64,000 nucleotides of DNA from NCBI GenBank assembly GCA_951406725.2, contig OX597816.1:156426001-156490000 (forward strand), in the 5' to 3' direction. Made by a program: the position numbers and the translations under genes. Source of the DNA: Octopus vulgaris (taxonomy: Eukaryota). Shown here in pieces: positions 1 through 61,530 of this stretch. A model generated the notes under the pieces. It was not told where the DNA came from, made no database searches, and saw only the letters and a program-made list of their open reading frames with translations. Positions within the stretch are counted from its first letter, which is position 1, and the number at the start of each line of letters is the position of its first letter.

Positions 1-15
1 TATATATATATGTAT

Positions 16-48
<33 letters not shown>

Positions 49-65
49 ATATGTATATATATATG

Positions 66-19822: not shown

Positions 19823-20113
19823 GTGGAGCCACATGGCCTAGTGGTTAGAGCAGCGGACTGCAGTCGAGGGATTGCGGGTTCGATTCTCAGACCGGGCGAT
19901 GTCTGTGTTTATGAGCGGCTCCGGCAGAAGGTAATGGCGAAGTTCTGCTGACTCTTTCGCCACAACTTTCTCTCACTCTTTCCTCCTGCATCTTGCAGCT
20001 CACCTGCGATGGTCCGGCGTGCCGTCCAGGTGGGGAACATATACGCCAAGGAAACCGGGAAACCGGCCCTTATGAGCCAGGCGTGGCTCGAGAAGGAACA
20101 AAGAACAACAAAC
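19823..20113 (+). mobile_element. tRNA-derived SINE with 13-bp TSD (V-domain-like body)
   Basis: TSD aattctcttaata at 19810-19822 and 20114-20126. A-box tggcctagtgg, B-box ggttcgattc. cctgcgatggtccggcgtgccgtccagg resembles the V-SINE core (from memory). Confidence 0.85.
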
Positions 20114-20141
20114 AATTCTCTTAATAATCATACAACGTAAA

Positions 20142-20360
20142 GCGACGAGCTGGCAGAATCGTTAGCACGCCGGCCAAAATACATAGCTTCATTTCACCAG
20201 TCTTTACGTTCTGAGTTCAAATACTACCGAGGTCGACTTTGCCTTTCATCCGTGTCGGAGTCAATAAAATAGGTACCAGTTGAGCATTAGCATCGGTGCA
20301 ATCGACTTACTCCCTCCCTTTTGTGCCGAAATTGCTGGCCTTGTGACAAAACTTGAAGCC
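20142..20360 (+). mobile_element. SINE family S2 monomer
   Basis: gcgacgagctggcagaatcgttagcacgccgg...gaggtcgactttgcctttcatcc. Confidence 0.85.
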
Positions 20361-20374
20361 AATAATGACACAAT

Positions 20375-21072
20375 ATAACACTTCTATATTTAAGAGATGT
20401 TGAATAATGTACATTATTTACATTATTTAGATTTGTCGGATATTTGTCTTCATCTTGTTTGTTGTTAACACAACGTTTCGGTTGATATATCCTCCAGCCT
20501 TCATCAAGTGTCTTTGAAAAATTTCGAACCTGGGTTATAATTGCGAAGGTATTTTTCGATGTTGTTGTTATTATTATTATCATTATTATTATTATTGAGT
20601 GAGAGAGCAGTGCATGCCATCAAAGTGACACTGGGGTAAAATATACGAAGCCCAATATACCCATCATGACTACCCGTCTGATAAAGGTACACTAGGCACA
20701 TGCATCACAACCATATGTGCACGACATGGTGATCTCATATCAAGATAAACAGCACATGACCTTGCAGGTGGGGCCCAGTTAGAATTTTCTTCGGGTTGAG
20801 TAGCCCATCCCGCTCAAAAGGTCCCTGAATAAGGGTTGTTTAAGGATGTTGAAAGAACCACCCATGTTTCCAGAGGTGAATTATTCAAACCCCAAAGAAT
20901 CCCTCTCAACACATGGCTATGATGCTCCCCCACTACTTCTACTCGTGATCAGAGATGCACATATCATCAGCCACTAAGGGATATGCTCAACTGGTTAAGG
21001 TCAAACAACTGACAAGCAAATCTGTGGTATTGAGCAGAATATTTGCTGTAGCGCATCTTTTATACCAAGACA

Positions 21073-21145
<73 letters not shown>

Positions 21146-21217
21146 TCACTGCCTGGAATCGGACTCAGAATCTTGGTGTTAGTAGCCCGCACTCTTAATC
21201 ACTACGCCATATGCCCG
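20375..21217 (-). mobile_element. tRNA-headed, (AAT)n-containing, HHR-tailed element (solo copy, interrupted by 20597-21072)
   Basis: Minus strand reads cgggcatatggcgtagtgattaagagtgcgggctactaacacc...(aat)n...acccaggttcgaaatttttcaaagacacTTGATGAaggctg...caaccGAAACGTTgtgtt. Homologous to 27108-27350. Confidence 0.8.
20597..21072. mobile_element. Unclassified ~475 bp insertion into an (ATT)n tract
   Basis: Complex sequence bounded on both sides by (att)n and absent from the homologous element at 27108-27350. Confidence 0.65.
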
Positions 21218-21888: not shown

Positions 21889-22303
21889 CGGCGGTGAGCT
21901 AGCAGAAACGTTAGCACGCCGGGCGAAATGCTTTGCGGTATTTCGTCGTGCCGCTACGTTCTGAGTTCAAATTCTGCCGAGGTCGACTTTGCCTTTCATC
22001 CATTCAGGGTCGATTAAATAAGTACCAGTTACGCACTGGGGTCGATATAATCAACTTAATCTGTTTGTCTGCCCTTGTGTGTCCTCTCTGTATTTAGCCC
22101 CTTGTTGGTAGTAAAGAAATAGGTATTTCGTCTGTCTTTGTGTTCTGAGTTCAAATTCCGCCGAGGTCGACTTTGCCTTTCATCCTTTCGGGGTCGATAA
22201 ATTAAGTATCAGTTACGCACTGGGCTCGATGTAATCGACTTAATTCCTTTGTGTGTCTTTTTTGTCTCCTCTATGTTTAGCCCCTTGTGGGCAAAAAAAA
22301 AAT
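21889..22303 (+). mobile_element. SINE family S2, internally duplicated (dimer)
   Basis: gttctgagttcaaattc...gccgaggtcgactttgcctttcatcc...tttagcccctt occurs twice in tandem. Confidence 0.9.
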
Positions 22304-25350: not shown

Positions 25351-25589
25351 ACGTATTTGTATGTCTCTGTTTATCCCCACCCCACCATCGCTTGACAACC
25401 AATGCTGGCGTGTTTACGTACCCGTAACTTAGAGGTTCGGAAAAAGAGAACGATGGAATAAGTACTAGGCTTACAAAGAATAATGGGGAACAGCTATCTT
25501 TCTCCATGACTCCTTTACAGTTGATGCCAATGGCATATTTTCCAACGGCTATTGCGAATGTATATCTCTATTCAACAACGCCAATGACA

Positions 25590-26579
25590 TAGTCATTGCT
25601 GGTTTTTACAGGTTTCCCCAACACATCTAAAGTGTTTTGAAGAATGCCTCAACAACGTCCTTCAAAAATACAACTTCGGAAACATACTAGTGATGGGTGA
25701 TTTTAACCTCACTTATATAAACTGACCCACAAATACTCTGAAGTTAGGCAAATGCACTACACCACACAAAGCAGCAGCAGTATTACTCCTTAATCTAATG
25801 GATGACTTTTTCCTGACTCAGCCAGTGCCCGAACCAACAAGACAATAAACCGATCTTAGATCTAATATTAACCGAGTACTCGAGCTCTTTTCACAGTATT
25901 TCAGTTGAAAACACTCTCCTCTTGGACCATGACATGATATTTTAAAACTTTAATTTCCGGCCAATCCCACTCCACTGCACTTATTTGACAACATTAACTT
26001 CCACAAAGCGGACTTGTGAGCAATAAGAAAGGACATGTCCTTTATCGATTGGTCCTTCATTCTCAGTTCCACTGACATTGAAACCGCATGGCAGTGCTTT
26101 GAAGACATTGTCACTTATACATGCTCAAACACGCTCCAACGAAATCCACTACACAAACAGAAACAGGGTCCCTAGAGAAAAAGAAATCCTCATCAGGCAC
26201 ATCAAAATACTTAAACAGCCAATTAAAATACTCCCACTTACAATCCATATTCAAGAAGAATGAAAGACCTGAAGTTGGAAAAACTTGCTCTGCAAACCAA
26301 CATGGAAACCTCCATTGAAAATCAAAGAGCTGCAGAGGAACAGCGGGTAATCAAAAAAATCAAACCCAAAAGTGTTCTATTCATATGCAAATAAGCATAA
26401 GACTGCTGTCTCCCTCATTGGTCCATTGATCTATCATAACAGCATTCTACAACACGATGCTAAAGAAATGACAGAAGTACTGCAGAAACAATACTGCTCT
26501 GTCTTAAGTGATGTGAACAAAGTCGATTCCCAACATAAAATGTCGGACATAACCTTTTCTGATTCAGACATCATAGCAG
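25590..26579 (+). mobile_element. CR1/L2-like LINE ORF2, 5' part (decayed APE endonuclease and linker)
   Basis: atactagtgatgggtgattttaac translates to ILVMGDFN, followed by a PTR..DL-like and a DH motif, then FYSYANK...IGPL. Many stops and frameshifts. Confidence 0.75.
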
Positions 26580-27079
26580 ATGCAACCAATAAACTGTCTA
26601 CGGTCTGGCTACTCTATGTGAAAAGCTTCTCCGAAAAGATACAAAAGATATGCGGCCCATATGACATCAGTATTCAAGAGTAATACAACACTTCGCAAAT
26701 ATCTCCTTCGAGTAAAACCACGAACAGAAGATAATATGACCAAAAACTGCTTGTACTCCATCCAATGCAGCTGTGGAAGGTTATACAAAGGTGAAACATA
26801 CCGCCCCCTCAAAACAAGGGTAGAGGAACATCGCAAAGCTGTGACACGAAGAGATATTGATAAATCGGGTATAGCTGATCATCTATGGAAAAATGGAGAC
26901 CACCTCCCCTGTGGGATGAAGTTAAAATAATTGACAGAGAACACCCCTGGAAAATTCGAAATCTAAAAGAAACAGCACATATGCTAGAACACAACAACCA
27001 CCTAAGCAGACCGAGTGCAGATATGAATAGCAATTGGGAGCGGATATTAAGGAATGATAGGAAAATATTAGATTTATAA
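26580..27079 (+). mobile_element. Penelope-like element 3' fragment encoding GIY-YIG endonuclease (frameshifted)
   Basis: LYVKSFSEKIQKICGPYDI..VFKSNTTLRKYL..KNCLYSIQCSCGRLYKGETYRPLKTRVEEH..SGIADHLW..WDEVKIIDRE..RNLKETAHM matches PLE GIY-YIG motifs. Confidence 0.88.
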
Positions 27080-27107
27080 GCCCTAAAATTCACTCCATAA
27101 TCGCCCA

Positions 27108-27350
27108 CGGGCATATGGTGTAGTGGTTAAGACCACGGGCTACTAACCCCAAGATTCCGAGTTCGATTCAATGATAATAATAATAATAATAGTAGTAATA
27201 ATAATAATAATAATAACAATAATAATAACAACAACAACAATAACTTCGAAAAATACCCTAGGAATGAGAACCCAGGTTCGAAATTTCCCTAAGACACCTG
27301 ATGACGGATGGAGAGTATATCCGTCAAATGTAAATAATATAAATAATGAA
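27108..27350 (+). mobile_element. tRNA-headed, (AAT)n, HHR-tailed module directly after the GIY-YIG ORF
   Basis: A-box tggtgtagtgg (27116), B-box gagttcgattc (27159), (aat)n, then gacacCTGATGA (27293-27304) with a decayed GAAAC half. Confidence 0.75.
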
Positions 27351-28905
27351 CAATAAATGAAATCAAATACTATTCTGCTGTAGGCCTTGATAGATTTCCC
27401 GCTAGTCTCCTGAAGCAATGTAGACACCAACTTGCAGTCCCTCTGCCCAACCTCCGGAGAAATTCTTTAGGCTCAGATTATATACCGAAGCAGCTCTTAT
27501 CCCAAGTCTGTCACTCCGGTTTTAAAAGAAGGAAACAGATCTCTCACAGTCAAATATTGTCAAATCTCACTCACCTCCCATATTATTTTGAGAGGGTGAT
27601 AGCTGGCTTCCTAGAAAGCTACATACTCCTAAATTCAAACCAGCATGACTTTCGCTACGGCAGGGACTTTCTAACACAGCTTTTACACCACATCGATGAT
27701 ATACTTAAAGCCTTGTGAATAGGTTCGGACTCTGATGTCATATATATATTGACTTCGGTAAAACGTTCGATACAGTTGACCAAAATATCCTACTATCAAA
27801 ACTGACAAATGTTAGAATCCATGGAAACCTCTACACTGTATTGAGTATTTACTGGTGAACAGAGCACAACATGTGATCAGTGGAATCCACTCAAGCCCAG
27901 CAAAAGTCACCAGTAGTGTGCCTCTGGGGATTGTCTTGGGCCCGCTCCTCTTTATAAGCTATATAAACGACCTTTCTAGCGTCATCAAACACAGAAAAGT
28001 GAATATATTTGCTGATGACTCTAAGCTCCAGAAAATTATCAATGAAGAAGAAGACCGAACGCAACTCCAGTCTGATCTATATGCTGTGAGTCAATGGGCA
28101 GATAAAAACAAAATGTAACGAAACGAAGGAAAATTTGAGCTGATGCAAACTACACTAAAACAACCATACTCTTTTCCTTCAGGGAAATCTCTCACAACAT
28201 CTAATAATATCAGAGACCTGGGAGTATTTGTTGATAACAATCTCAGTTGGGGTCCCCATATCAACAATAAGGTCAATATAGCTCGGAGGATGAACTCCTG
28301 GATCCTAAAAACCTTCCGGTCCAGAGAAGGTGTCATCATTCCAGCTTTTTCCTCCTTTGTATGGCCACACCTCGAATACTGCTGCCCCCTGTGGTCCCTC
28401 TACGAAACAAAACATCTCGAAAATTGAATCACCTCAGAGGTCATTCACTAAAAGAATTAAGGGCATGACTAATCTCGATTACTAGGACCGCCTTAAAGCA
28501 TGGAAACTCTATTCTCTCCTCAACATTATCTTCAGAATTCATCCAGGCTAGGACCACGGGCCATACGTCCCCTACCCAACTCAGGATCACAACACATCAA
28601 TACGCTGCTACACAATTTCTTTTCCTCAACAGACTATGCCCTATTTACCATTGTCCCGAAACAGATGAAAGAGGAAAGGATTCCATTACCTTTAAACAGA
28701 ATCTGGACAATTTTCTTCAAGGAATACCAAATAAGTCACCTGTAGTTGAATACAACTCATTTAACAAGAACTCCCTACTCGAATGGACCCATGATACCGC
28801 CAAACTTGACCTAAAAAGGATTTTGATAATCCTATCAGGGTGCAATTAAGTTAGACATGACCTGGACCAATCTTTGGTCGAAACATATCTAAGCTTTGTC
28901 TAAGT
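27351..28905 (+). mobile_element. CR1/L2-like LINE ORF2, RT domain and 3' end (decayed)
   Basis: Motifs SAVGLDRFPASLLKQC, QHDFR, IDFGKTFD, VPLGIVLGPLLFISYINDL, IFADDSKL, RDLG and PHLEYCCPLWS. Short repeated tctaag tail. Confidence 0.88.
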
Positions 28906-36597: not shown

Positions 36598-36994
36598 CTT
36601 TTCTACTCTAGGCACAAGACCCAAAATTTGGGGAAAGGAGACCAGTCAATTAGATCGACCCCAATACGCAACTGGTAATTACTTTATCAATCACGAAAGG
36701 ATGAAAAGCAAAGTCGACCTCGGCGGAATTTGAACTCAGAACTTAAAGACAGACGAAATACCTATTTCTTTACCACCCACAAGGGGCTAAACACAGAGAG
36801 GACAAACAAGGACAGACAAACGGATTAAGTCGATTGCATCGACCCCAGTGCGTAACTAGTACTTAATTTATCGACCGAGAAAGGATGAAAGGCAAAGTCG
36901 ACCTCGGCGAAATTCGAACTCAGAACGTAACCGCAGACGAAATACCGCTAGGCATTTCGCCCGGCGTGCTAATGTTTCTGCCAGCTTGCCGCCT
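36598..36994 (-). mobile_element. SINE family S2 dimer
   Basis: Reverse complement of the 35439-35836 structure. Confidence 0.9.
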
Positions 36995-61156: not shown

Positions 61157-61220
61157 CTGCGTGATCGTTGGCGATTTTTTTTCCTCCGCCTTCCTCCCCT
61201 TGGATCCTTCATTTTCCTAT

Positions 61221-61255
61221 GTTTCTGACGAAGAGCTCCGCCCGAAACGTTAAAT
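61221..61255 (+). ncRNA. Minimal type I hammerhead ribozyme, canonical core (family H1 repeat 61150-61360)
   Basis: GTTT-CTGACGA-A-GAGC-tcc-GCCC-GAAAC-GTT-AAAT, with a palindromic AACGTT stem III. Confidence 0.72.
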
Positions 61256-61530
61256 CCTCCTTCTTTCTTCCCTTTCCTGAGCGTCCAATAACACTATACT
61301 TGTTTCACGACCTCGCGTTGTAGTGTTTTCTCTTTGTCTTTTCATGTTTGGGTTAACTACATATATATATGTATATATATGGGGGGGGGGGGTAAACGTT
61401 TGGTATATACTCCAAAGTATTGAAAAAACTTTTTATCAATTCTGTTATAACTTCTTAATAATCTTTTGAATAACCCTAAATCGTAACTTTTTACAATATG
61501 GCAATATTGTTTAAAATATTTTAACTATAA

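Follow-up and report, generated by a model that had tools for sequence, protein, structure and literature searches.

Protein-coding retrotransposons are held to rely on RNA polymerase II (Pol II), or on Pol I read-through, and SINEs to borrow the tail of a LINE. Two octopus SINEs, OK and OR1, were reportedly described by Ohshima and Okada in 1994. Together with OR2, given as a CORE SINE in the available part of its source (PMC4758252), they share with the octopus family described here a tRNA-derived head and probably a related host, a likeness at the level of description. Cassandra, Helenus and Ajax (TRIMp3; PMC10886601) carry a small-RNA-derived Pol III promoter, possibly born of a SINE insertion, in their terminal repeats, but are, as far as the accessible text goes, non-autonomous LTR elements under ~1.3 kb, whereas the octopus head lies in a protein-coding element. 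In the portion of the review at hand (PMC6765202), Sm-alpha and Sj-alpha of Schistosoma place a Pol III promoter ahead of a hammerhead, an order that the octopus family repeats with its candidate promoter; they are, however, non-coding tandem units released by the ribozyme, whereas the octopus hammerhead lies within the open reading frame (ORF) of a Penelope-like element (PLE) and copy ends ignore its cut.

For PLEs themselves, an inverted partner and an extension of 30-40 nt at one end only have been described (PMC8557442, in part). Penelope of Drosophila virilis, in the excerpted account of PMC2377424, has inverted truncated partners and a pseudo-LTR whose internal promoter drives the downstream copy, as may hold in octopus; that promoter is TATA-less and LINE-like, with an intron, whereas the octopus element has A and B boxes at the inferred start. 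Poseidon of Anolis carolinensis (PAc; PMC11167929) agrees with the octopus family in an ORF that combines a reverse transcriptase (RT) with a C-terminal GIY-YIG endonuclease, in a hammerhead overlapping the ORF start, and in two classes of 3' end, 30-40 nt apart, which the ribozyme does not set. In vitro, the anole protein primed internally at two sites with both strands extended, used uncleaved RNA as its main template, and needed RNA reaching to +172 of the ORF, past the main priming site at +111-118 (PMC11167929). The available sections of that paper describe no tRNA-derived head; the octopus pseudo-LTR, in contrast, begins with one, and most short copies start there.

What would be new in octopus is a tRNA-type candidate promoter in the pseudo-LTR of a protein-coding PLE, a place to which the copy ends point. 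If true, an autonomous Penelope with a tRNA-type promoter breaks the division between Pol II elements and SINEs, and shows how SINE-like families could arise with no LINE involved. No tRNA-headed or Pol III-driven PLE was found in the open literature searched; the family may already have an entry in Repbase, in Dfam or in subscription papers, or in the repeat library of PMC13282606.

Two copies in the window and their parent family

The window, a stretch of 64,000 nt from the Octopus vulgaris genome, contains copy A (in the interval 20375..21217, minus strand) and copy B (26579..27355, plus strand). The original prediction read the whole 843 bp of this interval as one tRNA-headed, hammerhead-tailed element, a second, minus-strand copy of the module seen in copy B. 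Head and hammerhead are real, and the head (21217-21141) is 87% identical to 27108-27169, but 477 bp (20597-21073) belong to an unrelated repeat. Copy A is a short copy, now decayed, of the repeat that ends a protein-coding Penelope.

Followed along the minus strand, copy A opens at head position +1 with the tRNA-Arg-like head of the PLE pseudo-LTR (21141..21217, from alignment and direct reading), in which the A box (about 21209-21199) and the B box (about 21164-21156) carry one change each. The 5' part of an (AAT)n run (21074..21140) is followed by the separate insertion, foreign to the PLE (20597..21073, also on the minus strand), which is a 5'-truncated copy of a ~560-bp repeat, and by the 3' part of the run, (AAT)n/(AAC)n (20566..20596). 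The remaining 'tail' (20378..20565) consists of the leader and the opening ~160 nt of the PLE's ORF, here with its start codon changed, and terminates in the distal ('long') 3' end class; copy A is thus a long arm, and has neither partner nor target duplication. Within the tail lies a minimal type I hammerhead (20467..20512, minus strand) with a predicted cut between 20472 and 20471. The motifs that had been picked out at 20512-20467 are all present (GACAC/GTGTT, GGCTG/CAACC, GAAAC, AACGTT and TTGATGA), but C3>T is not the sole mutation claimed, as CAACC also gives a C-A mismatch in stem II, and the altered A box, B box and ORF start codon are further defects of the copy.

Copies of the inserted ~560-bp repeat are 87-98% alike and sited in (AAT)n runs; they share a fixed start, ~85 nt upstream of where the insert in copy A begins, and an (AAT)n end (L046, L025, L137, L147, L041, L090). 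Several loci place the repeat directly after the 3' end of an RLE-type ORF, which we take to be R4/Dong-like, and it is likely the non-autonomous partner of that adjoining LINE. Its start has 10 nt in common with the end of the tRNA head. Other abundant tRNA-headed or SINE-like repeats lie on either side of copy A (window 19823-20100, 20135-20355 and 21890-22290), and the stretch 21949-22250 is repeated in inverted orientation at 36634-36935.

Copy B, on the plus strand, comprises a 5'-truncated and frameshifted PLE ORF end with linker and GIY-YIG region (26579..27079), a tRNA-like head that follows the ORF stop and a 28-nt spacer and has lost its own 3' end (27108..27169), and a tail of the proximal ('short') 3' end class (27242..27355). 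PLE protein matches in the window are confined to 26579-27076, and the head of copy A is, as predicted, without GIY-YIG sequence beside it. Direct reading confirms that copy B keeps CTGATGA, but a 45-nt deletion in its tail takes out GAAAC and the cut site and so leaves half a ribozyme; the two copies do not jointly give the complete core that was expected of them, and the intact core is known instead from the family. Copy B sits inside a decayed endonuclease/RT LINE (window 25500-26578 and 27356-28800), presumably CR1-like from its motifs, with no target duplication visible.

The family unit, ~2.7 kb long, runs from a head through (AAT)n and the ORF start, which holds the minimal hammerhead in frame, to the RT and GIY-YIG regions and a further head, and its column majority holds a stop-free frame of 815 codons. 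The head stands directly after the ORF stop codon in 25 of 30 ORF-end loci, and in the five longest copies among 30 RT-selected loci the ORF is preceded by a tail in sense orientation, with tail and N-terminus sharing one reading frame. The same sequence therefore occurs at the ORF start and past the ORF end, and head and tail together make up an autonomous element's pseudo-LTR rather than a distinct, non-autonomous hybrid of SINE and retrozyme, as had been proposed. The N-terminal peptide that spans the hammerhead recurs in a relative of 55% identity (P0003). The family is a Penelope-like element of EN+ type: its single ORF joins an RT domain (RVT_1 match at E 2.7e-6, below the curated cut-off) to a C-terminal GIY-YIG endonuclease, in whose region the residues CxCxxxYxGET...H...H were read directly, and the protein has 2,989 homologues, some with PF01541. 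No extra Zn-finger motif, whose absence is one mark of the Penelope/Poseidon clade alongside placement in the RT tree, was seen between RT and EN in the translations, and the family is a putative member of that clade. No relatives were found in viral contigs. The junction between ORF end and head is bridged by contigs under four other organism labels, and is therefore not an assembly artefact of this genome.

Exact matches in the 2.8-Gb genome number 4,792 for the hammerhead 21-mer of copy A, 6,694 for a tail 19-mer, 1,585 for a head 23-mer and 832 for an ORF-end 23-mer; reversed controls of all four motifs gave 0, so the hammerhead matches are not due to chance. A rough recapture estimate, in which 20 of the first 79 hammerhead 21-mer matches also bear the tail 19-mer by hand count, puts the family at ~26,000 arms. 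The ORF end lay within 1.5 kb in 0 of 29 other tail-selected loci and directly upstream of the head in 2 of 29 other head-selected loci.

Where copies begin and end

The 5' ends were taken from 94 arms among the first 100 hammerhead 21-mer matches. With 29 ending in the tail, and 23 either in the (AAT)n run or with no recognisable head, most copies (52/94) are ordinary truncations; 10 more end within the head, 25 at its start and 1 at -25, and 6 run into the ORF end. Of the 32 arms that reach the head start, 25 thus stop there, a share that background truncation would put at 9-11% (p<1e-17). Anchoring 96 arms at a second motif, past the ribozyme cut, gave 27/38, or 25/37 once one duplicate was removed and one ORF-linked arm with a deletion reclassed; the samples have arms in common, and each is confined to the first 50 Mb of a single contig. 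The head-start bin was set at -22..+6 because inverted heads mimic upstream bases, and by eye the ends span -6..+6 and are most frequent at -6 and +2. At 25/32 and 27/38 against ~10% expected, the copies do not form the set of randomly broken PLEs, without enrichment at the head start, that the original prediction had named as its refutation, and their 5' ends are defined at the head in the manner of a SINE.

Among 30 ORF-5' loci, the single one that keeps the head (L362) begins at +1. Two others (L358, L379) lack the head, and upstream of their tail stands ORF-end sequence in sense orientation, a layout that points to longer or switched templates. At L365, L370, L372, L374-L376, L378, L380, L383 and L386 an ORF 5' stretch is joined to truncated head or tail at varying points, which suggests template jumps or deletions in longer-than-unit templates.

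The 3' ends of 94 arms fall into two classes, 51 at tail 121-163 and 43 at 180-198, with none between. An inverted family arm lies upstream in 54 of 84 insertions, and 48 inverted insertions with two tails comprise 45 long+short pairs, 3 short+short and 0 long+long. The family therefore has the inverted truncated partner and the 30-40 nt extension at one end only, and these arms and end classes uphold the PLE-type integration that had been predicted. By analogy with anole Poseidon, the long+short pairing would fit two cDNAs, one per nicked strand, from similar priming sites. Whatever the polymerase, the family gives genome-scale support for two-arm integration, with long+short pairs in 45/48 joined at the RNA 5' end, and makes PLE inversion and one-sided tail formation testable by the in vitro Poseidon assay. 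As for target-site duplications, 2 of 11 simple solos (copies without the ORF) show a 10-nt match between their flanks; none of 110 control pairs attained 9 nt, and no match flanks copy A.

Across the family, the hammerhead shows the CUGANGA core, the extra base before stem II, the G-C closing pair and the palindromic 15.2-16.2 of the minimal type I motif, and the core is fully intact in 26 of 60 family tails. The stems are 93.6% paired, and the stem II pair that is mismatched in copy A is broken in 5 of 14 aligned copies. The family's stems show no covariation, which therefore neither supports nor rejects the fold. Rfam profiles at default settings called neither hammerhead nor tRNA in copies A, B or the near-typical L010, and no tRNA or hammerhead stood among the 150 of 188 matches listed for the window.

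Starts at tail 97-100, immediately past the cut at 94, were seen in only 3 of 96 arms, and ribozyme processing, which the prediction had invoked, is not the source of copy ends. A retrozyme-like cycle, in which the hammerhead would excise unit RNAs to be circularised and copied, is extremely improbable; its mainstays are the palindromic minimal architecture, of the kind described for dimer cleavage, and a small deletion derivative with two hammerheads 276 nt apart, but the copies are mainly inverted pairs rather than short head-to-tail units bounded by the cut, and the junction of the derivative has 5 exact matches, all on one contig (C29). In this derivative, ORF position ~122 past the tail is rejoined to tail 12 (C29 loci L359-L361, L363, L368, L382 and L478-L482; similar in L364 and L366). 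It was considered as a subfamily, at about 9 of 30 loci, and rejected on the same junction count. Further hammerhead-like motifs (CTGACGA...GAAAC) at window 61220-61260 (plus strand) and about 38522-38480 (minus strand) are possibly pseudo-LTR remnants of other PLE families.

The tRNA-like head as a candidate promoter

Among 30 genomic tRNA genes, a set that spans few isoacceptors, the head scores best against a tRNA-Arg gene (46/73 identical) by a small margin over tRNA-Ala. Its A box lies at +9..19 and its B box at +54..62, 45 nt apart, and a tRNA-derived head with both boxes, as in a SINE, is found by reading and alignment. ARAGORN reported no tRNA in the window at default settings, its relaxed output being noise that was disregarded; both the tRNA head and the hammerhead were recognised by direct reading and alignment, and the cloverleaf of the head is decayed. 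By regular expression, no pair of A and B boxes was found beside the ORF in any of the 52 loci scanned among 79 related PLE loci from metagenomes, the others being short.

A type 2 Pol III promoter starts transcription about 13 nt ahead of its A box. Since most head-reaching copies begin right there, the head is likely the element's own candidate Pol III promoter and not the mark of a separate SINE family. On the sequence evidence, we consider it somewhat probable that the interval as a whole is a pseudo-LTR-only copy of an autonomous Penelope/Poseidon-type element, split by an insertion, with the head as a likely internal Pol III promoter.

It is unlikely that the head is instead a passenger lodged in the 3' UTR, whether as an old tRNA retrocopy or as a simple SINE, and that the boundary comes from a Pol II start, from RNA processing there, or from cDNA annealing or RT arrest at a palindrome that surrounds the head start. 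Transcription by Pol II from this point, or processing of a longer RNA, would yield an identical 5' boundary, and the pseudo-LTR of Drosophila Penelope, in the available text, holds a LINE-like internal promoter (PMC2377424). The decayed cloverleaf also suits a passenger, as does the state of the boxes, which are no better conserved in solos than in ORF-selected copies (A box kept in 26/37 versus 25/32, B box in 24/37 versus 20/32). The palindrome cuts both ways: 14 of 37 head-start arms are centred or joined there, but the other 23 are not, so annealing alone is insufficient for the boundary, and a structure block would be expected on the 3' side of the fold rather than at its 5' edge. A passenger would, furthermore, have to coincide with the expected type 2 start position and with a coding body from which T4 runs are absent.

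RNA-seq reads on one locus (L079; three raw runs, ~6% of each, and one contig run) covered the element, had about equal mate orientations and showed no pile-up of starts or ends; they are mute on Pol III because strandedness is unrecorded and host read-through likely. Their main loose end is an inverted head at -6.

With the head as the element's own promoter, the reading we prefer, Pol III would initiate at the head, the RNA starting at about -5 in a copy where an ORF follows the pseudo-LTR. The element's protein would nick both target strands, and reverse transcription would begin internally, from two sites that lie about 270-330 nt inside the RNA 5' end, and run off that end; cDNAs getting there would become SINE-like solos such as copy A, and priming at the downstream pseudo-LTR would give ORF-containing copies such as copy B. 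At the palindrome at the RNA start (TGCCC-AC-GGGCA), cDNA ends may anneal or fold back to produce head-to-head junctions. The ribozyme would be mostly uncut in the templates, and the solos would likely be dead-end products that form no self-propagating lineage.

Solo copies and T4 runs

The solos are read as run-off products of the autonomous element's RNA because they stop at priming sites, whereas the anole protein needed RNA past its main site. One must consider, nonetheless, that there are about 3-4 solos for every ORF-linked arm, and that the solos are laid out like SINEs, with a sharp start. These features would suit a non-autonomous SINE lineage that propagates itself, with solo loci as the source of its RNA and the PLE acting in trans to mobilise it, and internal priming, if it resembles that of the anole element in the published portion available, would accept the ragged 3' ends of Pol III RNA (PMC11167929). 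We regard such a lineage as decidedly improbable: ending at the priming sites, solos would be without the downstream part that the anole protein needed (PMC11167929, in part), and a long arm is unobtainable from a short-class solo.

The sequences likewise give no sign of the hybrid lineage originally envisaged. In a comparison of 85 solo with 39 ORF-linked heads, for which 30 of the loci had been selected for good heads, no diagnostic bases appeared; a variant at head position 65 is common to both, and four positions differ at p<0.02, each from greater decay in the ORF-linked copies. A tree of 72 head+tail rows interleaves the two kinds, with 12 solo/ORF-linked label changes against 13.0 in shuffled labels, but with good support for only 5 of its 69 branches it comes close to a star, and therefore has little power against a solo lineage. 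The family is SINE-like in how its short copies begin; it is not shown to be a SINE family.

How far transcription from the head might extend is touched on by the T4 runs. The 2,549-nt column majority contains none save at a column covered by one copy, where 2.7 are expected by synonymous frame shuffles (P=0.03) and 4.2 by base shuffles (P=0.012). In relatives, T4 runs are missing from 0 of 32 unit-length stretches (median 16) and from 4 of 52 ORF matches. Against a meaning in terms of Pol III, most relatives are T-richer, G4 runs are likewise absent from the column majority, and 13 of 60 family tails have a run of T4 or longer. The T4-poor coding body is only a hint that the whole element may be transcribed by Pol III. 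It also has against it that uncapped RNA would be poorly translated. Autonomous elements have, moreover, been argued to need Pol II (PMC10886601). We put forward as a tentative and rather doubtful proposal that the whole ~2.7-kb protein-coding Penelope became a Pol III unit, which would have captured a tRNA-Arg-derived promoter in its pseudo-LTR, lost the T4 terminators of its coding strand, and produced full-length RNA and thousands of SINE-like run-offs from one promoter; if true, the family is a snapshot of a SINE arising inside its own partner.

Inspection of four distant PLE relatives (L252, L263, L291, L254) revealed no tRNA-like or Pol III head. Their RT-EN regions are T4-free where 1-7 runs are expected, and T4 runs occur elsewhere in them.
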